From contig CBDCXV010000011.1 in the NCBI GenBank assembly GCA_965223905.1, forward strand, positions 32,001 to 96,000: a stretch of DNA of 64,000 nucleotides, given 5' to 3'. Position numbers and translations under genes: made by a program. This DNA comes from Candidatus Latescibacterota bacterium (GTDB lineage Bacteria; Latescibacterota; UBA2968; UBA8231). Within the stretch, counting starts at the first letter, position 1, and the number at the start of each line of letters is the position of its first letter. This document shows, one piece after another, positions 16,301 through 42,123 of this stretch. The notes beneath the pieces are model-generated. The model saw nothing but the letters and a program-made list of their open reading frames with translations, searched no databases and was not told where the DNA came from.

Positions 16301-19180
16301 CTATTCCCTTTCCTGCAGGCGCCCAAGCGCCCTCCGTGCCAGCTCCAGCGTCGAATCCTCCTGCACCGCCTTCTGCAACGCGGCGACTGCCTCTTCCCGG
16401 CGGCCCTGCTCTGCATAGGCCATGCCCAGATTCAGGTGGGCCCGCGCCAGGTCCGGGCGCAGGCGCACCACCCTTTCGAAGGTGGCGATCGCCCGCGCCA
16501 AGCGCCCCGCCTGATGCTGGGCGAGCCCCATGTCGTTGAGGGCCGTGACGAGACCTGCGTCGGCGGCGTACGCCCGCCCGTACGCGGCGATGGCGCGGTC
16601 CAGCTTGCCCTGACCGTGCAAGGCCCCGGCCAGGGCGTAGTGGGCTTTGGCGAACTCCGGTTTCAGCGCCACCGCCCGCTCGAACGCCGCCGCGGCCTCG
16701 GCGCCGCGGCCCTGCAGCAGGTATTCCCGCCCGACGCGGAACTGCAGCTCGGCATCGTCCGGAGTGACCCTGAGCACCTTCCGGAAGCGGTTGATGCGGT
16801 CCTGTACCGGCCGCAGGCGCGCGAACAGCTGCTGTTCCCGGCGCGCGGCCTGCGGCTGGTCCAGGGCTTCGTACAGGCGGGCGAGATGCTCGTGCGGCGT
16901 CGGGGCCCAGGGAGCCAGGCCCGCGGCGGCCTGAAAGGCATTGATCGCGGAGCGACGACTTCCCGTGCGCAGGTAGGCGAGGCCCAGCCGGTTGCGAATC
17001 TCCCATGCCCTCGGCGCCAGCGCGGCTGCTTTTTCGAGAGCGGCGACAGCGCGTTCCGGTTGATCGAAGCTCAGCCGAACCGCTCCAAGCAGGTGAAAGA
17101 TGGGTGCACGGGTCGAGTCCTTCGACACCGCCTCTTCCAGGACGCGGGCCGCCTTCCGGATCCGTCCCAAGCGCTTGAACAGGGTGACGGCGAGAGAGTA
17201 ATAGGCCTCCATGTGGTGCGGCTCCCGTTTGATCACCTCCCGGAATAGCCGCTCGGCCTCCTCGTGGCGGACCTCTTCGTGCCGTTCGACCCCCATCAGG
17301 TAGATCTCCCGGGCCGTGGCCTGCGCTGGAAGCGCGGCCAGACCGGACGTCTCGTCACCGGCCGGATCTGCCATCTTTTCCCCTGCGGGAGATTTCGTCT
17401 GACCAGGTACCGCCGCCGGTAACGCGGTCGCGACCGCGTATGAGGCGACCGGCTCGTCCTCTCCTTCCCTGAGCTTCAGGTACCGTCCGCTTTCCGGCTT
17501 CTCGAGAACCTGTACCCGGCCGGAAGGCCAGAGGATCTCCACCCGGTCCACCTCTTCCCGGGACCCGAGTCCGAACAGCAGCCGGTGGTCGTGTGCCGAC
17601 TGATAGCCGTAGCTCCGCCGCACCTCCCGGGTCCGGGTTCGCCCGCCGGCGCTCAGGAGCACGCGGGCGCCGATACCGTCGCGGTTGCTGGATGTTCCCT
17701 CCAATTCCAGGCCCAGCCAGTTGTTCCTGTTGCCCCCGTCGTTGCGCAGGAGGGTGGGCGCGTCGTTGAGATTCACCACGGCGATGTCCCGGTCGCCGTC
17801 GTTGTCGTAGTCGCCGAAAGCGGCGCCGCGGCTGACCTTTTCCACGTCCAGGCCGCTGCCGGCGTCAGCCGCCGGCGCGAACCTGCCCCGGTGATTCCAG
17901 TAGAGGAGGTTGCGCTGCCTGTAGCGCAGCGTGGTCGACTGGATCTCCAGCTGCGGGTAGAGGTGGCCATTGGCGACGAACAGGTCCTGCCAGCCGTCGT
18001 TGTCCGCGTCCAGGAAGGCCGTGCTCCAACCCACGAAAGGCCGCACCGGACCGTCCAGGCCGGCCGCGGCCGTCGCGTCGGCGAACATTCCCTTCCCGTC
18101 GTTCCGGTACAGGGTGTTAACGTCCGCGGAGAAATTGGTCACGTAGAAGTCCTGGTCGCCGTCGCCGTCGTAGTCCCCGAAGTCCACGCCCATGCCCGCC
18201 TGGGCCTTGCCGTCGGCGTTGTACGCCACCCCGGAAATCGCACCGACCTCGCGCAACTGCCAGTCGCTGTCGTTGCGCCAGAGCAGATTGGCCTGCTGGT
18301 CGTTGGCCACATAGATGTCCTGGTCTCCATCGTCGTCGTAGTCGCAGAACGCGACCCCCAGCCCGGCGAGTGCTTTGCCGGCTACCCCGGTGGCCGCGCT
18401 CACGTCTTCGAAGACGCCGCCGCCGCCGTTGCGGTAGAGCAGATCGGCCTGGGACCTCAACCCGATGGGCCCGCAGGCACCTTCTATTCCCCGGTAGGCC
18501 AGGCAGGGCTGGCCGTCGTTCGGGGGAGCTTCCAGGTCGAACTCCAGGTAGTTGGCGACGTAGAGGTCGAGCCGGCCGTCCGCGTCCAGATCGCCGAAGG
18601 CGGCGCTGGCGCCCCAGCCGTCGTCGCCGACCCCGGAGCGCGCCGTCACATCGGTGAAGCCTCCGTCGCCGTCGTTCCGGTAGAGGAGGTTCGGCCCCCA
18701 GTAGGTGACGTAGAGGTCCACGTCGCCGTCGTTGTCGTGGTCGGCCGCGGCGCATCCCATGCCCCAGCCCGACCCACCCACGCCGGCGCGCGCGGTGACG
18801 TCGGTGAAGAGTCGCCGGCCGGAGGACCCCGGGACGTTGCGGTAGAGGCGGCTGATGGCGGTTGGGGCCTCCTCCTCGACGCGCGTGCCGTTGACGAGGT
18901 AGAGGTCGAGGTAACCGTCGGCGTCGTAGTCGAAGAAAGCGGCTCCCCCGCTCATCGTCTCGAGAATGAACCGCTGCCCGGCATCGCCGGAGACGTGTGC
19001 GAAGTCCAGGCCCGAAGCCGCGGTCACGTCGGCGAAACGCACCTCCGCCCCCGGCTGGTGGCCGGGCTGCGGAGGGAGGCCGGATGGTGCGGTTTGCGGT
19101 GCCGGGGGAGCGGTATCCTGGTCCTCGGACGGAGCACAGGCAATCCCGCACGTCAGGACCAGTACCATCACCCGGTGCAT
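16301..19180 (-). CDS. CRTAC1-family (FG-GAP/VCBS, ASPIC/UnbV) lipoprotein with C-terminal TPRs
   Basis: Lipobox-like GIAC; many DYDxDGDxD repeats; SNRDGIGARV...RLLFGLG ASPIC domain; TPR helices. Confidence 0.9.
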   Translation of the reverse strand: MHRVMVLVLTCGIACAPSEDQDTAPPAPQTAPSGLPPQPGHQPGAEVRFADVTAASGLDFAHVSGDAGQRFILETMSGGAAFFDYDADGYLDLYLVNGTRVEEEAPTAISRLYRNVPGSSGRRLFTDVTARAGVGGSGWGMGCAAADHDNDGDVDLYVTYWGPNLLYRNDGDGGFTDVTARSGVGDDGWGASAAFGDLDADGRLDLYVANYLEFDLEAPPNDGQPCLAYRGIEGACGPIGLRSQADLLYRNGGGGVFEDVSAATGVAGKALAGLGVAFCDYDDDGDQDIYVANDQQANLLWRNDSDWQLREVGAISGVAYNADGKAQAGMGVDFGDYDGDGDQDFYVTNFSADVNTLYRNDGKGMFADATAAAGLDGPVRPFVGWSTAFLDADNDGWQDLFVANGHLYPQLEIQSTTLRYRQRNLLYWNHRGRFAPAADAGSGLDVEKVSRGAAFGDYDNDGDRDIAVVNLNDAPTLLRNDGGNRNNWLGLELEGTSSNRDGIGARVLLSAGGRTRTREVRRSYGYQSAHDHRLLFGLGSREEVDRVEILWPSGRVQVLEKPESGRYLKLREGEDEPVASYAVATALPAAVPGQTKSPAGEKMADPAGDETSGLAALPAQATAREIYLMGVERHEEVRHEEAERLFREVIKREPHHMEAYYSLAVTLFKRLGRIRKAARVLEEAVSKDSTRAPIFHLLGAVRLSFDQPERAVAALEKAAALAPRAWEIRNRLGLAYLRTGSRRSAINAFQAAAGLAPWAPTPHEHLARLYEALDQPQAARREQQLFARLRPVQDRINRFRKVLRVTPDDAELQFRVGREYLLQGRGAEAAAAFERAVALKPEFAKAHYALAGALHGQGKLDRAIAAYGRAYAADAGLVTALNDMGLAQHQAGRLARAIATFERVVRLRPDLARAHLNLGMAYAEQGRREEAVAALQKAVQEDSTLELARRALGRLQERE

Positions 19181-19183
19181 GCG

Positions 19184-21112
19184 TTACCTGGGGGGCTGGA
19201 GATTGGGCATCACGCCGTCCAGGAGCCGCGCGAAACCCGCCTTCGCCACGCTCTCGAGCTGTTTGCCTCGACTCAGCCTGGCGTAGGTTTCGCGATGACG
19301 CCGGGCCTCTGCCTCCTTCCCGACCCGTTCCTTCAGCATGCCGAGAAACAGGTGCGGATAGGGATCTTCCGGCACCTCTTCCCGCACGTATTCGAGGTGG
19401 GCGATGGCCTCCGCATGCCGCTGCCGGCGGGTCAGCAGGAGCGCCAGCAGCTGACGGGCCCCGAGATGGTCGGGGCGCAGCCGGATCGCTTCGCGGAGAT
19501 GGATCTCGGACTCCTGGAGCTGTGCGGCGTCAACGGGCGAGGTGGAATCCACCTCGAACAGGCTGTCCTCCAGGGCCCGCTCCAGCAGCGCCCCTCCCAA
19601 CCTGGCGTGCCAGAGGTGATTTCCGGGATCCTCCGAAAGCAGCGCGCGGTACTGCTCGATCGCCCGGTCCGTTTGCCCGCCGCGATCGTACAGCTGGGCC
19701 AGCTGGTAGCGCAGGAGGGTGGAGTCAGGCCGGGCCGCCACCGCCTCGGCGTAAGCAGCGGCGGCGCGGTCGATCCGCCCCATCGCCCGGTAGGCCTCCC
19801 CCAGGCGCACCAGCAGTCCCGGCGAGGGAGCGCCGCGTGCGCGGACCTGCTTCCAGGAGAAGACGGCCTCGTCCATGCGTCCGGTGGCGGCGTAGCCATC
19901 CCCCTGCAGGAGCAGGATCTCCGGTGCTTCGGGATGAGACCGGAGGAACTCCGCGCAGACGGTGAGAGCCTCCTCCGGCCTGCCTTGGTCAAGGTACAGC
20001 TTCGCCAGCTCCCGCGTGGCCGGCTTGTGAGCCGGCATCTGCTCGACGGCCCGGCGGTAGGCGCCGGCGGCATGGGCCGTCATCCCCTGACGGGCACAGG
20101 CGACGCCCATCCAATAGTGATGATGCGCAGCGCCCGCCAGATGCGCGGGCGTCTTCACCCCGAGGTTGCAGGCGACGACAAGGAAGAGGATGCCGGCCGT
20201 CTTCCACGCTCTTCGATTGCTTCTCCACAGGTCTTCTACGGCCAGAGCGGCGAAGGGCAGCATCAGCAGCGCCAGGGGCAGCCGCTGGCGCGCATCGGGG
20301 GCGAGGAGGCCGAACACAACCGCGGACGCGAAGACGAAAAGCAGCAGCGCCCTGCCGGCCGTCGTGCGGGCCCCGGCAGAGCGCCCGAACAGGACGAGCC
20401 CGGGAATGGCCAGAGGCAGTATCACCCCGAACGGGAAGGCCAGCCACCGGTCCCACAGCAGGGCGCCGATCACCGCGGAATGGCCGCTGATCAGATAGGG
20501 ATCGAGGTCCGGGAGCAACTCCCGGCCCTGGACGAGATGGAAGAGATTGGGCGCCGACCCGGCCAGGCTGCCCAGGGCCGGCAGGTTGCGAAAGGGAAGG
20601 GATTCGACCAGCACCAGGGCCAGAAGCAGGGCGGAGATCGTCCACCTGCAGACCGGCTTCTGCACCGGCGGACGGGCGACACTCAACAGAAACAGAGGCC
20701 CAAGCAATGTCGACCACGTAGTCGGCGTCAGCTCGCCGACGAAGCAGATGGAGGGCCCGTAGAAGGCCGCGGCCAGGCCGGCCGCAAGACCGATGGCGCG
20801 GGAGAACAGGGTCGCGGACAGCAGGTAGATCAGCAGACAGGCGGCGGTGCCCGCCGCGGCCTGGCCGAAAAAAACCAGGGTCGGATCACCTTCCCCGATT
20901 CGGAGGGTGGCGCCGACAACGCGGGTGTAGAGGGGAGCGCGGGGTGAGGGTTGGTCCAGACCTGAATCCCGGTCCGGCGCGACGCCCGCGAAGAGAGAAG
21001 CCACCCCGCCGGGACCACTGAGAAAGGGACTGTCCTGGATTTCGTGGAGATAGGCGAATCGCACGGCGATCGCCGCAAGGCCGATCAGCAGCAGGCGCTG
21101 AAGGTCGGACAC
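19184..21112 (-). CDS. Membrane protein (GT-C/PMT-like N-terminal TM region) with C-terminal TPRs
   Basis: Multiple TM segments, RAPLY and ARQRLPL motifs, then TPR repeats. Confidence 0.65.
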   Translation of the reverse strand: MSDLQRLLLIGLAAIAVRFAYLHEIQDSPFLSGPGGVASLFAGVAPDRDSGLDQPSPRAPLYTRVVGATLRIGEGDPTLVFFGQAAAGTAACLLIYLLSATLFSRAIGLAAGLAAAFYGPSICFVGELTPTTWSTLLGPLFLLSVARPPVQKPVCRWTISALLLALVLVESLPFRNLPALGSLAGSAPNLFHLVQGRELLPDLDPYLISGHSAVIGALLWDRWLAFPFGVILPLAIPGLVLFGRSAGARTTAGRALLLFVFASAVVFGLLAPDARQRLPLALLMLPFAALAVEDLWRSNRRAWKTAGILFLVVACNLGVKTPAHLAGAAHHHYWMGVACARQGMTAHAAGAYRRAVEQMPAHKPATRELAKLYLDQGRPEEALTVCAEFLRSHPEAPEILLLQGDGYAATGRMDEAVFSWKQVRARGAPSPGLLVRLGEAYRAMGRIDRAAAAYAEAVAARPDSTLLRYQLAQLYDRGGQTDRAIEQYRALLSEDPGNHLWHARLGGALLERALEDSLFEVDSTSPVDAAQLQESEIHLREAIRLRPDHLGARQLLALLLTRRQRHAEAIAHLEYVREEVPEDPYPHLFLGMLKERVGKEAEARRHRETYARLSRGKQLESVAKAGFARLLDGVMPNLQPPR

Positions 21113-21116
21113 CTCG

Positions 21117-22088
21117 CTACTTCCGGAGCAGGCTGTCCGGCAGGGCTTCGGTCAGCTCCCTGGAATGCACCACCACCTGCGAGGCGTACTTCTCGCCCAG
21201 CTTCCGCAGCAAGCCCTCCAAGGCTTCCGCCTGCCGTCGTCCGAGCAGCAGGGTCCGCGCCCGGCGGCTCGCCCGTTCGTAGGGATACATGCTTTCCGGA
21301 ACCCGCTCCAGCACCCGAAAGATCGAGTATCCACCCGCCACGGCGACCGGTCCCGTCAGTTCTCCCTCCCTCGCCAGGGCTGTCGCCGCGGTCAGTTGAG
21401 GGTAGATCTGCCCCTCCTGCCGGTGGAAGTGATACCGGGCACCGAGCTTGCGGGCGTCGGGGCGCAGGCTGTGGCCCGCCAGATCGACAAATCGCTCGCC
21501 CGCTGCGATCCGGTCGCGGATTTCCCTCGCCGCGGCTTCGGATCCCAACAGCAGCTCCTCGACCGCGGTATACCCCTCGATGCGGAAGATACCCGGATTG
21601 TCGTCGTAGTAGCCCCGGACTTCCTCCTCTGAAACTTCGATGCCGGCCACCGCCGTGCTTCTTACCGCTTCGGCGACCGCCTGGTCCCGCTGCTGTCTGC
21701 GAAACCGGTGAATGTCCGGTGTGTCGTAGAGTCCGGCGGCCGCGGCTGCGAGCTCGAACAGACGCGGTGACAATACGTAGCTCCGGACCACTTGCTCGGC
21801 CTGGGCGCTGTCGGCAAAGCTCCGGCGCAGGCCGGCCGCAGCCAGAGCTTCATCCGCCTCGGCCACCGTGATGACCCCCTTGTCGTGGTGGTAGAGGGGG
21901 GTGGAGCTGGCAGCCAGGGGGTCGGAACGCCGCCGCCGGTAGGCTTCCATCAGCTCCCTCAAACCCGCCGGGTTCAGACGAACGCGGTAAGAGTGGGCGA
22001 GGGCTTCCCGGTGCTCGCTCAGTGCCTGAATTCTTCGCTTCCGTCTGAGTTGGCGTTCGATGAGAGGGGCGTATTTCGAAAACGCCAC
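21117..22088 (-). pseudogene. Parvulin/PrsA-like PPIase, probably 5'-truncated
   Basis: VSEEEVRGYY, GERFVDLA..HS, GELTGPV...GGYSIFRV; no signal or anchor at the N-terminus. Confidence 0.6.
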
Positions 22089-24773: not shown

Positions 24774-27700
24774 TCAGGGGGCGCTGAAGACCCAGGGGCG
24801 GGCCTGCTTGATCGCCAGTATATCGGCGCTGGTGATCTTGAACTCGATCTCCATGGCGAACGGTTCACCGGCTGCGGGGTCGTACAGCTCCGCGAACTCC
24901 TCGTGGATCACCTCGAGATGCTCTCTCAACTGGCGCAGTTGGTCATCGCTCATCAGGAGTTGCCCCGGCGGCACCTGGTTGGAGGTCGCAAGGACGGTGT
25001 ATGCACTGTTTCTGCTCAGCAGAAGTTCCTCCGGCACCGAGTGCGCCTCGGGGTTGGTGACCAGGTCCTCGCCGACCTGCGTGTTGACGTAGTAGCGTCC
25101 GTCTCTGCCGTAGATGGGGTCGAAGCTGACGGCGACACCGTTGGCCAGTTCGTCACGATAACTGGGATGCACCAGCACCCCCATCGCCGCCGCCAGGTGA
25201 TCGATGCGATGAAAATCGCGTTCGACGAAGGCGCGGAAGTTCCACAGACCGGCGTACACCTCCTTGAGGGACTTGGCGAGATCCTTCTCGTCCTCGCTCG
25301 GCTTCTGGCTCTTGGAGTCGTACAGCCCCGCGCCGTTGAAGCCCGGCAGGTCCTCGTTGTTGGTGCTGGACCGGTAGCGGCGGTTGATCCCCTCGGAGAA
25401 AGACTCATTCATTGTCTCGATTGCCGAGATGATCCAATCCGGCGTCTCCGCGTCCTCGATGGCCTTGCGCAGCTTCTTGAGGGAGTCCGCCCGGGCTTCG
25501 AAGTCCGTCTGGAAGGCTTCGTCGGCCAGCATGGTTTCAACGCGGGTGTAGAAGTCGTTGTGCTTCATGAACTCGTCGTAGAAGTAGAACGGGATCGCGA
25601 AGCCGTCGGGCACCGTCCCCTCCGGAAACCCCAGCGTCCCCAGCACCGCCACGTTGGCCGCCTTGACGCCGAACGCGTCCCAGTCATCGAAGCCGATCTC
25701 ACTGAGCGGCGTGATTTGGGTGATCTCGAGGTCCCGTTGCGGGATCTGTTCATGGGCGGGCCGGGAAGACTCGTAGTGCGCCTCGACTTCTGCGGGCGTG
25801 GCCGCCCCAAGCTCCCAGCCGCTATCCGTCACCTCGTAGCGGACGTAGCCGCCGATGAGAGTGTTGATAGAGCTGTTGTCGAGCGCGTCGGCGATGAAGG
25901 CATTGGGGATGCCGTCCTGCACGGCGCGCAGGTTGACGTGCGACAGGGGCGTCTGGGGCACGGTGCTGACGATGCCGGCCACGCGGGAAAGTTCGTTGGG
26001 CAGGGCCTCGTAGAGCACCACGTCGCGCGGGTGGGGACGTTCGTCCGGGTCCATGACCCGCAGCAGGCCGTACCCTTCCCCCGGGTTCAACGCCAGGAAG
26101 CCGGATTCGGGAGAGATGTCTTCGTCGAACAAGAGGTTGATTCGGGAATCCCTGTAGAGCGGCAAGTCGGACTGGAAAGACAGAAGCTGATTGTTTCTTA
26201 TGTGAAAGGCCAAGTTGTCCTCGAGCAGCCGCATGCTGGCGGCGAGCATCGTATAGGAGCGCGCCACAAGGCTGAAGGAGAAGGGGAAAACAGATCTTAC
26301 CGTAAGCGATAAACGGTAGACTCCCGGACTGCCATCGGGGGCAACGAGGTCCGTGTAATAGGTGATTTCACCGGTGATCATCCTGTCCTGGCCCGGGTCG
26401 AGACCTACGGCATCCAAGAAGTATTGATGCTGCTGGTAGGTCTCGGTGTTCATGAAGTAGACACGCGGGCGGGCGGTGTCCATGCCGAGCAGAACGAACT
26501 TGAGGAACAAACCGCTGAAGGAGAGTGTCTCGAATGTTTCCCGATCGGGAACGGTCACGGCCCCGTCAGTGAGTGCGATGGCCGCCGCCGGGTTCAGCGG
26601 GTTCATGCCCACCGTGTCGAGTTCGGTGAGGTCGTCAATGCAGTCGCCGTCGACGTCGGCCGGGTCGGCGACGAGGTACTTCTCCACCCGGTAGCGCTCC
26701 CTGGGCAGCGCCGCCACGTTCTCGGCGAGCGTGGTCGTGCCCGCTTCGCCGCGCTTGACCAGGACCGGCACCTCTACCGTCGCGCCATCCACATCGTGCC
26801 GCACATAGAGCACGAAGTAGTCATCCGTCGTGGACTCGACCACGATGGGAACCGCCGTCACCTGCACAGCCACCGGCGTCGGGGCGTCGCCGCCTTCTGA
26901 ACAGCTCCCCCCGAAGCCCGAGACGGACCATTCGCTCTCCCCTTCGTCGTTGTGCGCCCGCACCTGCACCTCGTAACGGGTGTTGACCTCCAGGTCCGGG
27001 ATCGTGGTAGTGGTACCGGGGCCGTCGTGCGGCCAGGGGAGGAAGCTGCCGCTCTTGCGATACTGCACGTCGTAGTCGTGGACATCGGGGCCGGTGTTGG
27101 CCGGCTCGGTCCAGGTCACGGTCAGGCTGGTGGAGGAGGCCGGCTCAACCCACGGGGCAGACGGCCTCCCGGGCGGTTCGTCGACGTCGGCTACGTGGAT
27201 GGTCACGTCAATGGCGGCAATGCCGCCATGTCCGTCCTCGGCTTTCACCGACACAGAATAGCGGGGCTTTGTCTCGTAGTCGTAGGTGGCGCCCGAGCGG
27301 GTGCGCAACTGGCCGCTGGTGGAGGCGAGGGTGAAACTCCCCGCATCCGTCCCCTCCAGGTTGTAGGTCAGCCTGTCGTCATCGCTATCCGTCGCGGTCA
27401 CCGGGTTGCCGATGTCCTCACGCGCCCCGGTGTTCTCGGCCACGGTGCGGGTTGCGGCCGGTGCCTCGTCGAAGGTGGGGGCGTTGTTCTGACCCGGCGG
27501 AGGCGGAGGCGGCGGGTCCGGCGGTGGAGGCGTTGGAGGCGTTGGAGGCGGCGGTGGAGGTGGAGGCGTCGGGGGCGGGGGGGTTACCGGACCACCACCG
27601 TCATTACCATTACCATCACCATCGTCACTGCCCGAGCCGGGTGGGGTCCGGGGCGGCCTGGGGGGCGGCTTGGGCTCGACGGTGACCCTGAAGCTCAGTG

Positions 27701-30700
27701 ACGCCTCCAGTTCCTTCGGGTCGCGGGCGGTCACTGAGATCCCGGTCTGCCCGATGCTCTTGGGGGTGATGCGCAGGCCGGTTCCTTCGACCGCTGCGGT
27801 GGCCACCGCCTCGTTGCTCGACGCGGCCGTGTAGGTCAGCACGTCTGTTTCGTCCGGGTCGGTGAAGGCGTCCGACAGCTCGACCCGGTCCGGGCTGCCG
27901 ATGCGGATCTTGCGGTCGGCCAGGGTCCCCGCCACCGGCGGGCGGTTGGCTGGGTACACGGTCACCGGGACCGGCAGAGTGGCAGCCCGGCCCCCCTCGT
28001 CGCGGGCGGTCACCGCGACCGTCACCCGGCCGGGGGTCACCGGGGATATGGTCAGCACCGAGTCGGCCAGAGTCGCGGCGGCGACCGCTTCGTCGCTGGA
28101 GGCGGCGGTGAGGGTCAGGGCGCCCCCCTCCGGGTCGCGGAAGCGGCCGGCCAGGTTCAGGGTGGCCGAGGCCCCCTCTACTTTGAGGATCTGCGCCGGC
28201 AGGCCGGCGCCCAGGGTCAGGCCGTACGGCTCCTTCAGGCCGGAAGTGACCAGATCCTCGACCTGGCTGCCGTCGAGGTTGGCGCGCTGGATCTTGTCGG
28301 TGCCGTAGTCGGTCCAGTACATCCTGCCCTCGTCCAGATCGAGGGCGATCGCCTGGGAGGTCCGCAGGCCCTCGGTAACCAGGTCTTCCACCTCGGAGCC
28401 GTCGAGATTCGCGCGCTGGATCTTGTCCGTGCCCCAGTCGGGCCAGTACATGCGGCCGTCTTCCAGGTCGAGGGCGAGGCCCCGGGGCTGGTTGAGGCCG
28501 GTGACCAGGTCCTCGACTTCGGAGCCGTCGAGATTGGCCCGCTGAATCCGGTCGCTGCCCCAGTCGGTCCAGTAGATCTTGCCCTCCCCCAGGTCGAGGG
28601 CGAGGCCGTAGGGCTCGTTCAGACCGGTGGCGACGAGGTCTTCGATTTCGGAGCCGTCGAGATTGGATCGCTGGATACGGTCGGTCCCCCAGTCGCTCCA
28701 GTAGATCTTGCCGCCTCCCAGATCGAGGGCGAGACCGAACGGCTCCTTCAACCCTTCGGTCACCAGGTCTTCGACCTTTGAGCCGTCGAGGTGGGCGCGC
28801 TGGATCTTGTCGGCGCCGCTGTCGGTCCAGTACATGCGGCCGCCGTCCCGGTCGAGGGCGATGTCCCGGGGCTGCATGAGTCCGCCGACCAGGGTGCGAA
28901 TGTCGCTGCCGTCGAGCTCGGCCCGCTGGATGCGGTCGGTGCGCGCGTCGGTCCAGTAGAGCCAGGGCACGGCGAGCGGGGGCTCGTTGGAGGCCTGCAC
29001 GGTGACCGAAAACCTCTGGGTTGCCTGCAGGCCGCCCGGGTCGCGGGCGGTCACGGTGACGGCGGTCTCGCCGACGGCCAGCAGACGCAGGGTCACCAGG
29101 GAATCGGCTGTCTCCACCGTCGCCACCGTTTCGTCGCCGGACGAGGCCGTGTAGGTCAGGGCGTCTCCGTCCGGGTCGCTGCCGGCCAGCTCGAGAATCA
29201 CCGAGTCGCCGGTGGCCGCGGTGCGGTCCGCCAGCGGCTCCAGGGCAGGGGCCTGGTTGTCCGTGGACAAAGTCCGGGCAAGGGCCAGGCCCCGGGGACT
29301 CCGCAAGCCCTCGGTCACCAGGTCTTCCACCTCGGAGCCGTCGAGGTTGGACCGCTGGATGCGGTCGGTGCTGCTGTCGGCCCAGTAGAGCTTGCCCGCA
29401 GAAACGTCGAGGGCCAAGCCCCGGGGGGTGCCCAAACCGGTGGTCACGAGATCCTCGATTTCCGTGCCGTCGAGGTTGGCCCGTTGAATGCGGTCGGTTC
29501 CGTTGTCGCTCCAGTAGAGCTTGCCGCCGGCCGCGTCCAGGGTGAGTCCCCGGGGGATCTGCAGGCCGGTGGTGACGAGGTCTTCGAGTTCAGTGCCATC
29601 AAGGTTTGCGCGCTGGATTCGGTCGGCGCCGCTGTCGGTCCAGTAAAGCTTGCCCGCGGCCGCGTCGAGGGCCAGGCCCAACGGCGTCTGCAGGCCGGTC
29701 ACCAGGTCTTCCACTTGAGAGCCGTCGAGGTTGGACCGCTGAATCTTGTCGGTGCCGTTGTCCGTCCAGTAGAGCTTGCCGCCGGCCGCGTCGAGGGCCA
29801 GGGCCAGGGGGATCCGCAGGCCTTCGGTGACGAGGTCCTCGATTTCGGAGCCGTCGAGGTTGGACCGCTGGATGCGGTCGGTTCCGTAGTCGGTCCAGTA
29901 GAGCTTGCCGGCCGCCTGATCCACCGCCAGGCCGCGCGGGTTGACCAGGCCGCTGTCGACGACGTCCTCGACCCCGGAGCCGTCCAAGTGGGCGCGCCGG
30001 ATCCGGTCCGCCTCCGCGTCGGTCCAGTAGAGCCGGTTGACCGCCCCGAGGCTCCCGGCCCCGACGACGAGCACGGCGAAGCGCTGCACCGCCTCCAGGC
30101 CGTCCGGGTCGCGGACGGTCACCGCAATCGTCGCCCGGCCCATCGCCAGCGCGTAGACCGTCAGCAGGGAATCGGTCACCTCGACCCTGGCTACCGCCTC
30201 GTCGCTCGATGAAGCCGCGTAGGTCAGGGCGTCTCCGTCCGAGTCGCGGCCCGTCGCCACGACAGTCAGGGTGTCGCCGGCGGCCGCGGTCCGGTCCGCT
30301 ATAGGCGCCAGGACCGGGGCCCGGTTGCCGCCGGCAACGGTCCGCACCAGGACCAGGCCCCGGGGACTTTCCAGCCCCTCGGTCACCAGGTCTTCGATTT
30401 CAGAGCCGTCGAGGTTGGACCGCTGGATCTTGTCGGCGCCGCTGTCGGTCCAGTAGAGCTTGCCTGCGGCCGTATCCAGGGCCAGGCCCCGGGGACTTTC
30501 CAGCCCCTCGGTCACCAGGTCTTCGATTTCAGAGCCGTCGAGGTTGGCCCGCTGGATCTTGTCGCTGCCGTTGTCGCTCCAGTAGAGCTTGCCCCCGGCC
30601 GCGTCCAGGGCCAGCCCCCGGGGAAGCTCCAGGCCGGCGGTGATGAGGTCCTCGACTTCCGTGCCGTCCAGATTGGCCCGCTGGATCTTGTCCGCGCCGC

Positions 30701-32150
30701 TGTCGCTCCAGTAGAGCTTGCCGCCGGCTGCGTCCACGGCCAGGCTCAACGGCGTCTGCAGGCCGGTCACCAGGTCCTCGACTTGAGAGCCGTCGAGGTT
30801 GGACCGCTGGATGCGGTCGGTGCCGTTGTCCGTCCAGTAGAGCTTGCCGCCGGCCACGTCCACGGCCAGACCCAGCGGAATGCGCAGGCCGGTGGTCACC
30901 AGGTCTTCCACCTGCGAGCCGTCGAGGTTGGACCGCTGGATCTTGTCGCTGCCGTAGTCGGTCCAGTAGAGCTTGCCGGCCGCCTGATCCACGGCCAGGC
31001 CGCGCGGGTTGACCAGACCGCTGTCGATCACGTCCTCGACCCCGGAGCCGTCCAGGTTTGCGCGCTGAATGCGGTCGCCGTCCGCGTCCGTCCAGTAGAG
31101 CATCGGCGCATCCGCCGCCGCCACCGGGGCGCCGATCCCTTCCGGCAGCGACGGGTCGGACGGGTCGGCGTGGTAGGCCTCGATCAGCCGGGCGTCGGTC
31201 AGATCGACCAGCCCGTCCCCGTTGACGTCCCCCAGGGTGAGGTCGCCGTTGCCAAGGGACAGGGCCGGGTCCTCGCTGTACGAGGCGATCAGCAGGGCGT
31301 CGGACAGATCGACCCGGCCGTTGCCGTCGACGTCCCCCAGCAGGCCGCCTGCAACGGCCACCTTGCCCCGAGGCAGGGAGGACAGCGGCTGAACCTGGAT
31401 CTCGACAGGCCCGCCTCCCATTCGGAAGGCCGGGTCGACGTAAGGGACCAGCCCCGGACCCGAGACTGTCAGCCCGTAGACCGGTCCCTTACCGCGAGGC
31501 GGGGCTGCCGCCCTGGCGGAACCCCCTCCACCCCCCAAGCCCACCGCCCCGTCCAGCAGCACCATCGACCGCGTCAGCCGCTCCCCGCCTCCCAGCAGCC
31601 GATACAGGTACACCCCCGAGCCCACCCCCCGGCCCGAGGCGTCCGTCGCGTTCCAGGTCGCCGTGTGGAAGCCGGCCGGACGCTCTCCGTCCACCAGGGT
31701 CGCCACCCGCTGGCCCAGAATGTTGAACACCTCCAGCCGCACACGAGCCGGGACCGGAAGCTGATACGGGATGATCGTCGACGGATTGAACGGGTTGGGG
31801 TAGTTCTGACCCAGGTGCAGGCGCGCCGGCAGCGGCGCGGCACGGCGTAGCGCCTTCAGGGGAAAGGCGAAATAGCCGCTCTCATCGGTGGTGACCCGCA
31901 ACGAGCGCCCCAGGTCGCCCGGGGCGAACAGCCGCACCCGGGCCCCGGCCGCCGGAGCCCCCGAAGACAGAAGCACACGCCCCTCCAGCAGCGGCTCGGC
32001 CCCGGCTCCTGACCCCGGTGCCGCGAGACAGCCGAGCACTGCCAGCAGCCATCCGAAACCGCCGGCACCCGGGAAAGAGGCCGAGGAGCGCCGGGCGGAC
32101 AGGGTGCGGGGTGTATCGATGGGGTTCTCCAGTCGCAAGGTCGGCCGCAT
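24774..32150 (-). CDS. 2458-aa secreted multidomain protein: FlgD-Ig-like, dockerin, three YWTD beta-propellers with Ig-like spacers, Pro-rich linker, cadherin, FN3, PEP/pyruvate-binding (ATP-grasp) domain
   Basis: 18 (L/M/I)YW(T/S/A/P)D repeats; GDVDGNG/GDVNGDG; YDYETK; YEVQVRAHN; GVKAAN, RSSTNNEDLPGFNGAGLYDS, EIEF...KQARPW. Confidence 0.9.
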   Translation of the reverse strand: MRPTLRLENPIDTPRTLSARRSSASFPGAGGFGWLLAVLGCLAAPGSGAGAEPLLEGRVLLSSGAPAAGARVRLFAPGDLGRSLRVTTDESGYFAFPLKALRRAAPLPARLHLGQNYPNPFNPSTIIPYQLPVPARVRLEVFNILGQRVATLVDGERPAGFHTATWNATDASGRGVGSGVYLYRLLGGGERLTRSMVLLDGAVGLGGGGGSARAAAPPRGKGPVYGLTVSGPGLVPYVDPAFRMGGGPVEIQVQPLSSLPRGKVAVAGGLLGDVDGNGRVDLSDALLIASYSEDPALSLGNGDLTLGDVNGDGLVDLTDARLIEAYHADPSDPSLPEGIGAPVAAADAPMLYWTDADGDRIQRANLDGSGVEDVIDSGLVNPRGLAVDQAAGKLYWTDYGSDKIQRSNLDGSQVEDLVTTGLRIPLGLAVDVAGGKLYWTDNGTDRIQRSNLDGSQVEDLVTGLQTPLSLAVDAAGGKLYWSDSGADKIQRANLDGTEVEDLITAGLELPRGLALDAAGGKLYWSDNGSDKIQRANLDGSEIEDLVTEGLESPRGLALDTAAGKLYWTDSGADKIQRSNLDGSEIEDLVTEGLESPRGLVLVRTVAGGNRAPVLAPIADRTAAAGDTLTVVATGRDSDGDALTYAASSSDEAVARVEVTDSLLTVYALAMGRATIAVTVRDPDGLEAVQRFAVLVVGAGSLGAVNRLYWTDAEADRIRRAHLDGSGVEDVVDSGLVNPRGLAVDQAAGKLYWTDYGTDRIQRSNLDGSEIEDLVTEGLRIPLALALDAAGGKLYWTDNGTDKIQRSNLDGSQVEDLVTGLQTPLGLALDAAAGKLYWTDSGADRIQRANLDGTELEDLVTTGLQIPRGLTLDAAGGKLYWSDNGTDRIQRANLDGTEIEDLVTTGLGTPRGLALDVSAGKLYWADSSTDRIQRSNLDGSEVEDLVTEGLRSPRGLALARTLSTDNQAPALEPLADRTAATGDSVILELAGSDPDGDALTYTASSGDETVATVETADSLVTLRLLAVGETAVTVTARDPGGLQATQRFSVTVQASNEPPLAVPWLYWTDARTDRIQRAELDGSDIRTLVGGLMQPRDIALDRDGGRMYWTDSGADKIQRAHLDGSKVEDLVTEGLKEPFGLALDLGGGKIYWSDWGTDRIQRSNLDGSEIEDLVATGLNEPYGLALDLGEGKIYWTDWGSDRIQRANLDGSEVEDLVTGLNQPRGLALDLEDGRMYWPDWGTDKIQRANLDGSEVEDLVTEGLRTSQAIALDLDEGRMYWTDYGTDKIQRANLDGSQVEDLVTSGLKEPYGLTLGAGLPAQILKVEGASATLNLAGRFRDPEGGALTLTAASSDEAVAAATLADSVLTISPVTPGRVTVAVTARDEGGRAATLPVPVTVYPANRPPVAGTLADRKIRIGSPDRVELSDAFTDPDETDVLTYTAASSNEAVATAAVEGTGLRITPKSIGQTGISVTARDPKELEASLSFRVTVEPKPPPRPPRTPPGSGSDDGDGNGNDGGGPVTPPPPTPPPPPPPPTPPTPPPPDPPPPPPPGQNNAPTFDEAPAATRTVAENTGAREDIGNPVTATDSDDDRLTYNLEGTDAGSFTLASTSGQLRTRSGATYDYETKPRYSVSVKAEDGHGGIAAIDVTIHVADVDEPPGRPSAPWVEPASSTSLTVTWTEPANTGPDVHDYDVQYRKSGSFLPWPHDGPGTTTTIPDLEVNTRYEVQVRAHNDEGESEWSVSGFGGSCSEGGDAPTPVAVQVTAVPIVVESTTDDYFVLYVRHDVDGATVEVPVLVKRGEAGTTTLAENVAALPRERYRVEKYLVADPADVDGDCIDDLTELDTVGMNPLNPAAAIALTDGAVTVPDRETFETLSFSGLFLKFVLLGMDTARPRVYFMNTETYQQHQYFLDAVGLDPGQDRMITGEITYYTDLVAPDGSPGVYRLSLTVRSVFPFSFSLVARSYTMLAASMRLLEDNLAFHIRNNQLLSFQSDLPLYRDSRINLLFDEDISPESGFLALNPGEGYGLLRVMDPDERPHPRDVVLYEALPNELSRVAGIVSTVPQTPLSHVNLRAVQDGIPNAFIADALDNSSINTLIGGYVRYEVTDSGWELGAATPAEVEAHYESSRPAHEQIPQRDLEITQITPLSEIGFDDWDAFGVKAANVAVLGTLGFPEGTVPDGFAIPFYFYDEFMKHNDFYTRVETMLADEAFQTDFEARADSLKKLRKAIEDAETPDWIISAIETMNESFSEGINRRYRSSTNNEDLPGFNGAGLYDSKSQKPSEDEKDLAKSLKEVYAGLWNFRAFVERDFHRIDHLAAAMGVLVHPSYRDELANGVAVSFDPIYGRDGRYYVNTQVGEDLVTNPEAHSVPEELLLSRNSAYTVLATSNQVPPGQLLMSDDQLRQLREHLEVIHEEFAELYDPAAGEPFAMEIEFKITSADILAIKQARPWVFSAP

Positions 32151-38640: not shown

Positions 38641-41600
38641 TCAGCGGTCCTGCAGCGGCAGGTGGCGCCGCGACTCGATCCAGAAGGCGGCGATCGAAAC
38701 GGCGACGATGCCGAGCCAGATCCATCCGTGAACCTGGAACCAGGTGGCGGGCTGGCGCACGAGATCCAGGCCCGGGTCCAGGGTGGCGGTCAGCACCCCG
38801 AGGAGGATGTAGGCGAGGATGTTCCCGCGCAGCAGGAAGGCGATGACGGCAGCGACGGTCGCTATTTTGATGGCGCTCGTTCCGGCGCCGAGGAGGAACT
38901 CGCCGGCGTTGAATGCCCCCCCTTCCGAGATCAGGAGCCAGGCGAGGACCGCCCCGATCACGTACGCAGGTTTCTTCAGGACCTTCAGCGCGTAGAAGAG
39001 GACGATGCCGTAGGCGATCGGCATCACGGCCCCGGTGGTCAGGGTGGCGATCAGGCCGCTGACGGCCGGCGCCGCGTCGTTCATTCCGGTCAGCGACAGG
39101 AGGCCAAAGCCGGGATCTGCGAACCCGGGGAATTGCCGGGCAACGAGGCCGGCGAGCCGATCCCCGACCTTCCCGGCGACCCAGGCGAGCAGGGCGATCA
39201 AGGCGGCGTCGCGAAAGAACCCGCCCCGCCCCGGTCCCCGCAGGCGCTCGAGGCAACCCGGGTACAGGGAATCGGCCAGGCCGAGATAGCAGACCACACC
39301 GAGGCCGACGGCGATCAGGCCCAGCACCGCGCCGACGACCTGCATGATGGTGAAGATGGTGGTCGTCATCGCGGTGCTGTACCCGGTGTAGAATGCCGGC
39401 AGGCTGTTGAGGTAGCCGATGAGGAACAGGGCGCCGGCGATCAGACCGAGAGTCACCGGTTTCCGCCAGCCGAGGGCCTGCGACCGCATCTGGCGGACCA
39501 TCAGCCAGATCAGGTGCAGGACGACAAAGACGATGACGGCGATGTTCAGCCCCGACATCACCGCTTTCAAGGTGGTGCTCTCCTCGCGCTCTCGAAGCCA
39601 TTCCTCGGGCAGCTTGACGAAGCGGCGGAAGCCGCTCGCTTCGTCGCCGATCACGTCGACCTCGATCCGGTAGAAGGACTGGTCGAGGTTGCGCGGGTCC
39701 CCCTCCAGGGCCTCCCAGACGAAGTTGTGGTCGCGCCTCGCCTTCATCTTCTCCGAGGAGGATTCCACCAGCTCGAACTCGCCCGCATCGACCCCGAACT
39801 CCCGCAGGTGGGCTTCGGCCACCGCCCGCGCCTCCTCTTCGGAGAGGTCGGCCCCGGCAGCCTCCTCTTCCACCAGGTGGGTGTAGGAATCGACGCTACC
39901 GTCGCCGCAGTCGACGTAGACGCGGAACTCCTCCTTTTCGAGGGACCGGAAGAACCGCACCCGCCAGCGGTTGAGGGGCAGGTGGCGGCTGTAGAGGCTG
40001 TCGATGGCGGCGAAGCCGGCCCGCTCCATGCGGTACTTGGCGACGCTGCCGCTGGCCGCGGAGGAGCCGGTCACCACCACCCGGTATTCCTCCAGATCGA
40101 CCCCTCGGCCGCCGAGGTAGCTTCGCGCCGCGGCTTCCGCTTCCTGCGCGGTGACGGCGAAGGCGGTCTCCTCGAGCGGCTTCTCGTAGTCGAGGAGGAA
40201 GAGGCCGGCTGCCAGGGCGACGACCGCGGTCGAGAGGAGAAGGCGGCGCCCCGACAGGGGGGTGTACGCCGATGCCGGCTCCGGTTCGGAAAGGGGTTCG
40301 TCTTGCGGCGCCTGAACCCCCTCCCCGGACAAGGCCTCCTGCAGCTCGTCGAGGGGGGGACTCTCGGCGCGGTTGAGCAGCGGCTCGGGATCGACGAAGA
40401 ACCGGTGCCGCACGTACAGGACCAGGGCCGCGGCGAACGGCAGCAGCATCAGGCCGACCGAAAGGCCGGCGGAGACGACGAAGTAGCTGTTGCTCGACCG
40501 CAGCAGGATCATGGCGGTGTAGAAGGCGTCGATGGTGTAGTGCCAGACCAGGGCGGGAAGCAGCCCCCAGCGGATCATCACGTAGCCGACGGCGATCCCG
40601 GCGAGGCCGACCTCGATGCCGCGGATGTAGAACGGCTGCTGCGGGTACCCGGCGTGGGCGAACCCCCAGACCAGGGCGGAGATCACCACGGCGAGCCAGC
40701 GCTTCTTCAGGAAACGCTGCAGGAACGGGATCGAGAAGGCCCGCGAGGTGAACTCCTCGGAGACCGCCGGCATGAACCCGATCAGCAGGACGACGACCCA
40801 CGGGATGTAGGTGTTGACCATCTGGTCGTAGGGGATCTGCGCCGGGCTCCAGGCCCCCAGGTCGTCGGCGACGACGTAGAAGACGGTCTGGTAGGCGACG
40901 AACAGGGCGGTCATGGTCAGGCCGATGACGGTGCCGGTCAGGAAGCGCTTGGTGCGGATTCCCGCCGGCAGGAACTGCTGGTTGAGACTGATCTGGCCGC
41001 CGTAGGAGCGGCGGTAGATCGGCTCCGCCCCGGCGGTGAGAAAGCCGATGAGGACCGCCTGTCCGAGCGCCGAGAGCAGGGCCGAGAGCAGGTGACTGGT
41101 GAGGAAGCTGCCGTAGGTCTCGGTGGTGTCGAAGTTGAACTCCGTGAGCGGCAGGGTGTTGAGCTCGGCGAGAAAGGTCAGGGCGAAGGCGATGGCGGTG
41201 AATACCGTTACCGTCTTCCAGCGCACGTCCCGGGCGCGGATGCTCTGGGTGAGGACCACGAGCATGCCGATCCACAGGAGCACCATCAGGACGGCGGCGA
41301 TCAGGCCGGTCGCCTCGTTGTAGGAGCGCAGCTCCTGGTACTCCCGCTGCCAGGCCTCGGGAACCTTGAGGTACTCGCTGTACCTGCCGACCTCATCCCC
41401 CTGGATGCCGACCGTGAGGCGGTAGGTCGCCTCGGAGACCTCGAATCCGGACAGCTTCCAGGTGAAGGTGTGGTCGCTGCGGTTCGGGCGCTCGGTGATC
41501 TCGGCCTCGACGAAGGTCAGCCCCGCCAGGTCGCGGCCCATCGTCCCGGAGAGGAAGCCCTCGGCCAGGGAGCGGGCTTCGGCCTGGTCGAGGCTGGCCC

Positions 41601-42021
41601 CGGCGGCCTCCTCCTCGATCAGGTGGGAGAAGCCGGCCAGCTCCCCCGCGGTCGTGTACTGCACGCGGAACTCTTCCTTCTCCAGCTCCCTGACCCAGCG
41701 GTTGCTCCAGCGCCACAGGCGCACCGGGTCGCCGATGAGGGCGGTGGCCCCTTCGAGTCCCAGCTCGCGCTCGAGGAAGGTCTTGGCCATGCCGTCGAAG
41801 AGGAAGATGGCGCTGTGGCGGTACCCCTCGACGTCGAGGCCGCGGCTGTCGAGGAAGGTCCGCGCCCGTTCCCCCGCCTCCTCGCGGGTGATGCGGAAGT
41901 CGATGGTCGCTTCCGGGAAGGCGTCGTAGAAGAAGTGGCTCGCCGTCACCAGGCTGGCCGCGGCGACGACGAAACAGACGGCGATCAGCCGGAAATCGCG
42001 ATGGGTGAGGTGTTGTTCCAT
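38641..42021 (-). CDS. Large CPBP (CAAX protease/Abi) intramembrane glutamic endopeptidase with a duplicated extracytoplasmic module
   Basis: PAVSEEFTSR, WGFAH and WHYTID motifs; EEEAAGA.L...EAR module present twice. Confidence 0.8.
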   Translation of the reverse strand: MEQHLTHRDFRLIAVCFVVAAASLVTASHFFYDAFPEATIDFRITREEAGERARTFLDSRGLDVEGYRHSAIFLFDGMAKTFLERELGLEGATALIGDPVRLWRWSNRWVRELEKEEFRVQYTTAGELAGFSHLIEEEAAGASLDQAEARSLAEGFLSGTMGRDLAGLTFVEAEITERPNRSDHTFTWKLSGFEVSEATYRLTVGIQGDEVGRYSEYLKVPEAWQREYQELRSYNEATGLIAAVLMVLLWIGMLVVLTQSIRARDVRWKTVTVFTAIAFALTFLAELNTLPLTEFNFDTTETYGSFLTSHLLSALLSALGQAVLIGFLTAGAEPIYRRSYGGQISLNQQFLPAGIRTKRFLTGTVIGLTMTALFVAYQTVFYVVADDLGAWSPAQIPYDQMVNTYIPWVVVLLIGFMPAVSEEFTSRAFSIPFLQRFLKKRWLAVVISALVWGFAHAGYPQQPFYIRGIEVGLAGIAVGYVMIRWGLLPALVWHYTIDAFYTAMILLRSSNSYFVVSAGLSVGLMLLPFAAALVLYVRHRFFVDPEPLLNRAESPPLDELQEALSGEGVQAPQDEPLSEPEPASAYTPLSGRRLLLSTAVVALAAGLFLLDYEKPLEETAFAVTAQEAEAAARSYLGGRGVDLEEYRVVVTGSSAASGSVAKYRMERAGFAAIDSLYSRHLPLNRWRVRFFRSLEKEEFRVYVDCGDGSVDSYTHLVEEEAAGADLSEEEARAVAEAHLREFGVDAGEFELVESSSEKMKARRDHNFVWEALEGDPRNLDQSFYRIEVDVIGDEASGFRRFVKLPEEWLREREESTTLKAVMSGLNIAVIVFVVLHLIWLMVRQMRSQALGWRKPVTLGLIAGALFLIGYLNSLPAFYTGYSTAMTTTIFTIMQVVGAVLGLIAVGLGVVCYLGLADSLYPGCLERLRGPGRGGFFRDAALIALLAWVAGKVGDRLAGLVARQFPGFADPGFGLLSLTGMNDAAPAVSGLIATLTTGAVMPIAYGIVLFYALKVLKKPAYVIGAVLAWLLISEGGAFNAGEFLLGAGTSAIKIATVAAVIAFLLRGNILAYILLGVLTATLDPGLDLVRQPATWFQVHGWIWLGIVAVSIAAFWIESRRHLPLQDR

Positions 42022-42123
42022 GTTTATCTTCAGGCTCGAGTTTCACCCGGCTCGAATGGGAGATGGTCCCTGGCCGGAAACCGGAAATTCCCTGCCGGTT
42101 CAGATCGCCGGCGAGAAGTGGAA

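Follow-up and report, generated by a model that had tools for sequence, protein, structure and literature searches.

In this study, we analyzed a 64,000-nucleotide stretch of a Candidatus Latescibacterota genome (GenBank assembly GCA_965223905.1, contig CBDCXV010000011.1, positions 32,001 to 96,000; hereafter, the window). One unbroken open reading frame (ORF) of the window, located at 24774..32150 on the minus strand, encodes a protein of 2458 amino acids. On balance, we lean toward the view that this is a Sec-exported, surface- or matrix-tethered protein that carries a complete histidine-relay dikinase at its C-terminus, with a domain order like that of the starch-phosphorylating plant enzyme alpha-glucan, water dikinase (GWD), and that it acts outside the cell. 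An earlier note, made from the DNA alone, had described the product as exported, composed of many domains, and equipped with a phosphotransfer module, a description that our sequence analysis supports; the same note had taken the C-terminal domain for an orphan ATP-grasp domain with no obvious phospho-histidine swivel domain, and on both counts the results pointed the other way.

The PEP/pyruvate-binding domain that the note had placed at the C-terminus was recovered by Pfam, in which PPDK_N (PF01326) scored 84.2 bits against a cut-off of 27 over residues 2160-2452. This domain is the last part of a conserved module of approximately 710 residues (~1750-2458), and the 410 residues between the fibronectin type III (fn3) domain and PPDK_N belong to the same module. 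Using residues 1750-2458 as the query, we obtained 1453 matches with E<=1e-3 among the 8000 candidates scored (1351-4302 residues); the best 120 relatives listed were 58-81% identical to the query over 93-100% of its length, and the remaining domains of these proteins differed greatly. An exhaustive HMMER search of representatives clustered at 50% identity returned 4465 clusters with E<=1e-3 and 1237 with E<=1e-30, and the matches typically ran from query residue ~28 to ~737 in one stretch. In a sample of 265 proteins biased to long ones, the module alignment exceeded 600 residues in 241, and 22 contained more than one; 142 of 263 alignments started within the first 150 residues, 17 were C-terminal as in the window protein, and 104 lay elsewhere.

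The module also occurs in a short stand-alone form of 650-850 residues, which matches query residues ~132-735 without the beta-sandwich part and is common in Poribacteria, Planctomycetota, and others. A short-form query yielded 3662 matches among 7999 candidates of 366-1168 residues. The source records name these proteins 'PEP/pyruvate-binding domain-containing protein', 'hypothetical protein', 'Pyruvate phosphate dikinase, AMP/ATP-binding domain' and, once, 'Phosphoenolpyruvate synthase', a name that is misleading for members of this family. As the earlier note had supposed, the family is uncharacterized in the databases and papers searched: the literature search retrieved no account of a secreted dikinase of this type, and the accessible part of one preprint lists PPDK_N among the domains scored as intracellular in giant proteins.

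The AlphaFold2 model of the last 738 residues, based on 55 aligned sequences, had a mean pLDDT of 89.4 and a pTM of 0.83, and a 391-residue model without the ATP-grasp domain had a pLDDT of 92.6. In fold searches of the PDB, the full model matched PEP synthase 2ols (E 2.3e-14), rifampin phosphotransferase (RPH) 5hv1, and other ATP-grasp enzymes. The best match of the model lacking the ATP-grasp domain was RPH 5hv2 (113 columns, root-mean-square deviation 3.4 A, E 6.4e-4), followed by AF_0055, the aconitase X small subunit, S. aureus pyruvate kinase, MccF, the Enzyme I N-domain, and PPDK; all of these best matches are proteins with a swivelling beta/beta/alpha domain. A profile of the 55 relatives compared with PDB sequences found only the ATP-grasp domains of PEP synthase and RPH, with no second stretch corresponding to a His domain. 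The core retrieved PPDK_N clusters of unnamed function from the ESM Atlas, and one row carried GWD1_pHisD on 15% of its members (score 0.86), which we treat as a lead only. In the beta-sandwich, both Cys1750 and Cys1837 were present in 38 of the 55 rows, the first alone in one, the second alone in four and, opposite a gap at the first position, in four more, and neither cysteine in eight; this covariation, which is inflated by the relatedness of the rows, would fit a disulfide.

We then compared the putative catalytic residues across the family. The G-x-K, R-S-S...E-D, and E-x-E...Q-A-R motifs of the ATP-grasp domain align with those of PEP synthases 2ols and 9dae. In the 55-row alignment of long forms, R2260 and Q2449 were kept in all rows and K2163, E2436, and R2451 in 54 each, and all five were kept in each of 60 short forms (every second entry of the best 120 short forms listed). 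These nucleotide-site residues are the Lys of G-x-K, the Arg of R-S-S, the acidic residue of E-x-E, and the Gln and Arg of Q-A-R, and they include the presumed equivalents of K22 and R337 of PPDK. The earlier note had allowed that the ATP-grasp residues could be degenerate; because they are kept in both long and short forms, they are not. Directly upstream of this domain, His2071 in the motif QTPLSHVNLRA was kept in 54 of the 55 long forms and in all 60 short forms, and the neighboring positions Q, T, L, N, L, R, A, and Q (QTPLSHVNLRA-Q) were kept in every row of both sets. His2071, the predicted phospho-acceptor, lies at the start of a helix in the AlphaFold2 models. In total, 112 positions were identical between the window protein and all 60 short forms. 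The invariant residues of the alpha/beta domain (residues ~1849-2014) include K1884, Y1898, F1899, N1901, T1902, and H1908, and we regard this domain as a candidate acceptor site.

These results bear on two simpler explanations. An ATP-grasp domain that lacks a His domain and works by itself as an ATP-binding domain or direct kinase on a receptor-mimicking scaffold would agree with the Pfam search at E<=10, which gave only PPDK_N and a trace of fn3 in the last 738 residues. The swivel fold upstream, the near-invariant His, the recurrence of GWD1_pHisD matches in relatives, and the conservation of the whole 710 residues as one unit nevertheless render this explanation extremely improbable. A noncatalytic module, that is, a pseudo-enzyme binding a nucleotide or an anionic ligand, would suit an extracellular location with no evident ATP supply. 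However, pseudo-enzymes usually lose the residues in question, whereas in this family His2071 and the five ATP-grasp residues were kept across phyla, and 112 positions were invariant between the window protein and the short forms; we therefore consider a pseudo-enzyme very unlikely.

The domain order of the module most resembles that of the plant and algal dikinases GWD and PWD (phosphoglucan, water dikinase), which phosphorylate alpha-glucan at C6 or C3 with the beta-phosphate of ATP. As described in parts of PMC5575247 and PMC11986951, a PPDK-type nucleotide-binding domain is C-terminal in GWD and PWD. The available part of PMC12892837 places the catalytic His of these enzymes (His992 in potato) in a phospho-His domain upstream of the nucleotide-binding domain and states that no experimental GWD or PWD structure exists. 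The module shares with these enzymes the C-terminal nucleotide-binding domain, a predicted phospho-His domain directly before it, and hence the same order, and in both cases targeting domains lie further upstream of the His domain. Unlike GWD and PWD, the window protein had no CBM45 or CBM20 starch-binding modules in the Pfam search, the module protein is predicted to be exported rather than plastidial or cytosolic, and its His domain is preceded by a family-specific alpha/beta domain and, in long forms, by a beta-sandwich. The Pfam model PF22973 (GWD1_pHisD) matched 8 of 22 mixed relatives (E 1e-4 to 0.2, 11.7-22.3 bits) and, at E<=0.1, 39 of the 60 short forms (best E 3.3e-5), always with profile positions ~48-113 of 115 and just before PPDK_N. 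Because a single model out of 24,736 turns up repeatedly at one and the same position, we read these matches as probably real but remote homology. The domain order and the sub-threshold matches thus suggest a GWD-type likeness, whereas membership in the GWD family is unproven.

With PEP synthase and PPDK, the module shares the ATP-grasp fold, the catalytic motifs, and the His-relay logic with a swivelling domain; however, those enzymes run in the reverse order, from the ATP-grasp domain through the His domain to a PEP/pyruvate TIM barrel, and no TIM-barrel match was found in the window protein. The PEP-utilizers model never matched the tail of the window protein, the 22 mixed relatives, or the 60 short forms, and neither the window nor the loci of relatives described in a later paragraph yielded a gene with its canonical His motif in a regular-expression search. 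RPH provided the best structural match for both the ATP-grasp domain (5hv1) and the His-domain region (5hv2), and it is likewise a three-part dikinase with a non-TIM acceptor domain. In contrast to the module, in which the His domain lies upstream of the ATP-grasp domain, RPH is cytoplasmic and runs from the ATP-grasp domain through the rifampin-binding domain to a C-terminal His domain, and no homology of the module to the RPH acceptor domain was detected. The NCBIfam scores were far below the cut-offs for PEP synthase/PPDK (64.4 vs. 598 and 61.9 vs. 739.75 bits), and the RPH model gave 47.6 against 999 bits. On domain order and scores, the module belongs to neither the PEP synthase/PPDK family nor the RPH family.

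We further investigated export and anchoring across the family. An N-terminal hydrophobic leader was present in 286 of 333 relatives, compared with 4 of 333 internal 70-residue control segments of the same proteins. This crude test required a best 12-residue Kyte-Doolittle window of >=1.9 within the first 70 residues, and it covered 333 of 385 module-bearing proteins; excluded were the window protein itself, two that lacked an initial Met, and any whose module started before residue 25. The N-termini of 24 relatives with the module first were typical Sec leaders ending in small residues. Most of 17 short or stand-alone forms (stop-to-stop translations) had a hydrophobic leader, and EF-hand-like and Gly/Arg-rich segments often came next. 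The partner domains of the 22 mixed relatives comprised a C-terminal Por_Secre_tail in five (Bacteroidota-type), EF-hands in three, and CW_binding_2, SLH, and PKD in one each; EF-hand families occurred in 34 of the 60 short forms. Among 13 long relatives scanned, we identified cadherin arrays, RTX repeats (P0018), leucine-rich repeats (LRRs; P0106), Metallophos with a purple-acid-phosphatase N-domain (P0012 and P0018), sulfatase with SGSH_C (P0107), and, in six, two PPDK_N stretches. The module usually lies just after the signal peptide, in thousands of proteins.

As a separate observation, P0012 and P0018 each contain two module copies fused to a metallophosphatase, and in P0107 the module is fused to a sulfatase. 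Each of these secreted proteins would therefore combine a phosphate-adding enzyme with a phosphate- or sulfate-removing one.

In the window protein itself, the signal peptide, the FlgD/type IX secretion system (T9SS) C-terminal-like domain, and the dockerin listed in the earlier note were all recovered. The leader has a hydrophobic core at residues 32-43 (Kyte-Doolittle 2.2) and is a probable Sec signal peptide. A lipoprotein reading was dropped; a lipobox is unlikely because the core Cys is replaced by Ser in P0029, the orthologue. FlgD_ig (residues 131-182) was just above its Pfam cut-off (28.3 vs. 27 bits), and the NCBIfam model TIGR04183 of Por_Secre_tail (residues 117-194) scored 28 bits against 23. 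T9SS cargo carries its sorting domain at the extreme C-terminus, whereas the matching domain of the window protein is near the N-terminus and would therefore have no role as a C-terminal sorting signal. Dockerin_1 (residues 271-325) scored 29.9 bits against 22.9.

By analogy with the established mechanisms of PPDK, PEP synthase, GWD, and RPH, the ATP-grasp domain (residues ~2145-2458) would bind ATP, the beta-phosphate would be transferred to His2071 on the swivelling domain, and the gamma-phosphate would be transferred to water. The His domain would then swing to the alpha/beta domain (residues ~1849-2014) and give its phosphate to an acceptor bound there. The propellers, Ig-like spacers, stalk, cadherin-like domain, and fn3 domain would form an arm anchoring or aiming the enzyme on the surface. 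The acceptor might be an extracellular polymer or a host-surface molecule, possibly a glycan, a guess drawn only from the GWD analogy, the sulfatase and phosphatase fusion partners, and the adhesin arms.

Several points weigh against an exported dikinase. The main objection is that we know of no ATP pool outside the cytoplasm that could feed such an enzyme. To our knowledge, His-relay dikinases (PEP synthase, PPDK, GWD, and RPH) are intracellular enzymes with access to the ATP of the cell, which makes an exported one unexpected. The swivel-fold matches were placed at residues ~2015-2132 through the secondary structure of the model and the position of the Pfam match, so that this placement is a predicted one. 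The GWD1_pHisD matches in relatives were all below the 27-bit cut-off (best 23.9), and the window protein gave no such match even at E<=10. The alpha/beta domain had no convincing match in Pfam, the PDB, or the ESM Atlas, and because this candidate acceptor domain matches nothing in these databases, the substrate is a guess. Finally, no conserved partner gene was found in the 79 loci examined and the window, where the widest cluster, leaving aside the gene itself and its off-frame shadows, was present in 11 of 80.

Two further explanations come into consideration. In the first, the same His relay is at work extracellularly and water is its final acceptor (ATP -> AMP + 2 Pi); it would remove extracellular ATP, a host danger or purinergic signal, or harvest phosphate, with the adhesin arm holding the enzyme at the host surface. 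The family-wide secretion and anchoring signals, the intact catalytic set, and the lack of conserved acceptor-related partner genes nearby are consistent with such ATP consumption, as are the many carriers in lineages named for sponges or known from them (PMC3909097, in part). However, an extra alpha/beta domain with invariant polar residues is present in both long and short forms, which argues for a specific acceptor, and the short form is likewise frequent among Planctomycetota and Verrucomicrobiota records without a host-related name; this role appears conceivable but unlikely. In the second, the protein is exported and the dikinase works inside a eukaryotic host or prey cell or a phagosome, where ATP is available, with the YWTD, cadherin, fn3, or LRR arms mediating binding and uptake. 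Delivery of this kind would remove the ATP difficulty; the module is found together with eukaryote-like adhesion domains, and the accessible parts of the sponge-symbiont literature tie such domains to host interaction (PMC3909097, PMC8163846). Nevertheless, the domain matches of the window proteins and relatives included no translocation domain or injection-system signal, and many relatives are wall- or surface-anchored (SLH, CW_binding_2, and T9SS tails), a poor fit with cell entry. We consider delivery quite improbable.

If the exported histidine-relay dikinase is the correct reading, a broader picture is possible, although we advance it only tentatively and with some doubt: the module may define a very large unrecognized family of surface or secreted dikinases that spend extracellular ATP on an extracellular polymer or host-surface molecule, as an extracellular counterpart of starch phosphorylation by GWD, or that remove a host ATP signal, and that have moved repeatedly between sponge-sharing phyla and become fused to host-like adhesion arms. 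The extracellular surroundings of marine and host-associated bacteria would then be a site of ATP-dependent phosphorylation or ATP removal, and the questions would be where the ATP originates and whether the phosphate goes to host matrix glycans, to particulate polysaccharide, or to nothing. A further question is why conservation of the module is so strong (50-80% identity across phyla) and why symbiont lineages apparently exchange it. The family would also supply bacterial relatives for the structurally unsolved catalytic core of plant GWD and PWD.

The distribution of carriers was determined through a genome scan, which yielded at least 534 pattern matches and at least 247 confirmed relatives; the best 80 of the 247 rows correspond to 79 loci. 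According to the record titles, these loci belong to Dehalococcoidia (31 of 79), Candidatus Poribacteria (14), Acidimicrobiia (13), Planctomycetota (6), Candidatus Latescibacterota, Acidobacteriota, and other Chloroflexota (3 each), Thermodesulfobacteriota (2), and Verrucomicrobiota, Gammaproteobacteria, Deferribacterota, and Bacteroidota (1 each). Several titles contain names such as Poriferisodalis and Poriferisocius, and Poribacteria are described as sponge associates in the accessible part of PMC3909097; these names suggest a sponge link of the long form.

A quick maximum-likelihood tree of the module (LG+G4; 80 rows, none dropped; SH-aLRT support only) paired the window module with that of a Latescibacterota chromosome (L001; 79% identity, support 100). 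The long-form clade mixed phyla, and its starred branches forced at least nine changes of the label Chloroflexota and at least seven of Actinomycetota. Cross-phylum pairs included Thermodesulfobacteriota with Terriglobia (branch lengths 0.04-0.05) and Latescibacterota with Dehalococcoidia, each with a support of 100, and the Poribacteria formed one group. The tree indicates that transfer of the module between phyla is likely, and no stronger wording is used because paralogy and binning errors can mimic transfer and paralogous module copies are present. Four chromosomes gave two loci each, and a pair of adjacent module genes occurs in each of five loci. In these loci (L006, L015, L028, L029, and L039), the two genes lie within ~6 kb, are 57-67% identical to the query, and represent tandem or neighboring paralogues. 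At locus L069, the module match is split across two frames near query residue 597 (~11701-11706), which reflects a frameshifted copy or a sequencing error. Regarding the gene neighborhoods, clusters in 66 and 18 loci were rejected as antisense or off-frame shadows of big genes, the other clusters (at most 11 of 80 loci) represented synteny of close relatives, and the poribacterial neighbors DUF5916, Laminin_G_3, DUF3500, and GHL15 had no clear link to the module.

The joining of such an enzyme to a surface protein could in principle be an artefact, if misassembly had created a chimeric ORF or if a cytoplasmic enzyme had been joined in silico to a surface protein, and the 80.5% identity of propellers 1 and 2 is of a kind that can confuse assemblers. 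The orthologue P0029 (2470 residues), however, is encoded on a separate 588-kb contig and is collinear with the window protein end to end, with 88% identity over residues 1-1498 and 81% over the module (last 709 residues). Three more relatives (P0032, P0033, and P0052) combine Ldl_recept_b, cadherin, fn3, and PPDK_N, and the module stands behind signal peptides in hundreds of independent proteins. Because of P0029 and the three relatives, misassembly at the fn3/module junction, which the earlier note had raised, is unlikely on sequence grounds, and we regard an artefact of either kind as a practically negligible prospect. Within the gene, the guanine-plus-cytosine (G+C) content is 0.626 in the module (24777..26903) and 0.70 in the adhesin arm (26925..32150), and the corresponding third-position values are 0.84 and 0.87; the lower value of the module may reflect separate origins of the two parts or merely amino-acid composition.

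The adhesin arm largely agreed with the earlier note, which had read it as three blocks of six YWTD repeats, each followed by an Ig-like spacer, and then a Pro-rich stalk, a cadherin domain, and an fn3 domain. Pfam identified 18 Ldl_recept_b stretches, and the motif count gave exactly 18 YW[TSAP]D motifs in three blocks of six with a spacing of 42-43 residues. An Ig-like spacer follows every block, with two after the third, and the stalk occupies residues ~1496-1560. The fn3 domain (residues 1667-1742) scored 54.6 bits. The cadherin assignment stood in part: a match is present at residues 1583-1642, but its 24.3 bits are below the cut-off of 28.8, although the precomputed domain lists of close relatives include PF00028. 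Each of the first two propellers is ~63% identical to propeller 3, which strongly matched the propellers of animal LRP2, LRP4, LRP6, and LDLR (E 1.6e-42 with the single LRP4 propeller 3v64 and E 1.8e-26 with LDLR 1ijq). Because of these matches, the term LRP-like is fair at the propeller level.

The window protein thus resembles animal LDLR/LRP ectodomains in its tandem six-bladed YWTD propellers with strong sequence similarity. Unlike those receptors, it has bacterial Ig-like spacers (Big_9/PKD-type) rather than EGF modules, and it lacks LDL-A repeats, a membrane anchor, and a tail; its Pfam matches included no EGF or LDL-A module. The propeller arm was found in 4 of the best 120 relatives listed. 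The arm is a lineage-specific add-on, and the dikinase module is the widely shared conserved part. Of the receptor mimicry proposed in the earlier note, only the YWTD propellers held. In the accessible parts of PMC3909097 and PMC8163846, LDL-receptor class B, fn3, cadherin, WD40, TPR, and ASPIC/UnbV domains are reported on predicted surface proteins of Poribacteria and other sponge metagenome-assembled genomes, as is lateral transfer among lineages. The window likewise holds WD40 and FG-GAP/ASPIC-UnbV/TPR genes, whereas the same parts of both papers do not mention the dikinase module, and the term 'dikinase' has 0 occurrences in the accessible text of PMC8163846.

Table 1. Features of the 2458-residue window protein (coordinates in the window).
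Feature	Coordinates	Strand	Evidence
Whole ORF, 2458 residues, with stop codon at 24774-24776	24774..32150	-	ORF call; collinear orthologue P0029
N-terminal leader, residues 1-51: charged n-region, hydrophobic core at residues 32-43, small residues before Glu52	31998..32150	-	Sequence and hydrophobicity
FlgD_ig/Por_Secre_tail-like beta-sandwich, residues 117-194, not C-terminal	31569..31802	-	Pfam, NCBIfam
Dockerin type I-like Ca-binding repeat pair, residues 271-325	31176..31340	-	Pfam
YWTD six-blade propeller 1, residues ~341-602	30345..31130	-	Pfam and motif count
Ig-like spacer 1 (Big_2/Big_9-type), residues 603-696	30063..30344	-	Pfam and motif count
YWTD propeller 2, residues ~697-958	29277..30062	-	Pfam and motif count
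Ig-like spacer 2 (Big_9/PKD-type), residues 959-1058	28977..29276	-	Pfam and motif count
YWTD propeller 3, residues ~1059-1316	28203..28976	-	Pfam, motif count, LRP matches
Two Ig-like domains, residues 1317-1495	27666..28202	-	Pfam, NCBIfam (tandem-95 repeat match)
Pro/Gly/Asp-rich stalk, residues ~1496-1560	27471..27665	-	Sequence
Cadherin-like domain, residues 1583-1642, below the Pfam cut-off	27225..27404	-	Pfam
Fibronectin type III domain, residues 1667-1742	26925..27152	-	Pfam
Module part 1: beta-sandwich with conserved acidic D-x-D-G-D loop, residues 1750-1848	26607..26903	-	Model, alignment
Module part 2: alpha/beta domain with no known relative, residues ~1849-2014	26109..26606	-	Model, alignment
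Module part 3: swivelling beta/beta/alpha phospho-histidine domain, residues ~2015-2132	25755..26108	-	Fold search, sub-threshold GWD1_pHisD in relatives; boundaries from model secondary structure
His2071 codon, predicted phospho-acceptor, motif QTPLSHVNLRA	25938..25940	-	Alignments; codon verified
Module part 4: PPDK_N ATP-grasp nucleotide-binding domain, residues ~2145-2458	24777..25718	-	Pfam, sequence and fold matches, residue conservation

In the window, the gene seems to stand alone. A gene for a 728-residue spermidine-synthase-like protein is convergent on its 3' end, and its upstream side holds nothing more than short ORFs, a GNAT fragment, and a phytase-like propeller gene. The promoter and terminator scan performed no better than shuffled sequences, the tRNA search of the window found none, and the Rfam search gave no match.

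Other parts of the window contain several genes of separate interest. A 981-residue WD40-repeat protein is encoded at 9276..12221 (-), in the stretch of lowest G+C content (0.52-0.56 vs. ~0.65-0.70 elsewhere), and may be an acquired eukaryote-like repeat gene. A three-gene run at 16301..22088 (-) encodes a 959-residue protein with FG-GAP, ASPIC/UnbV, and TPR domains, a 642-residue TPR protein, and a PPIase-domain protein; ASPIC/UnbV domains are noted in Poribacteria in part of PMC3909097. Two long ORFs overlap on opposite strands at 38641..42546. The minus-strand ORF (1126 residues) has Rce1-like and DUF4901 matches, and the plus-strand ORF has only a C-terminal match, to a Polbeta nucleotidyltransferase at residues 1163-1258; most of the latter ORF is probably a shadow frame. 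The region at 54000..63400 has a lower G+C content (0.57-0.59) and three transposase/integrase ORFs, namely DDE_Tnp_1_4 at 58104..59108 (+), rve_3 at 59514..60362 (-), and IS66 at 62406..63326 (-). A 720-residue protein encoded at 51472..53634 (-) strongly matched DUF6785 and DUF6784 (E 5e-100).

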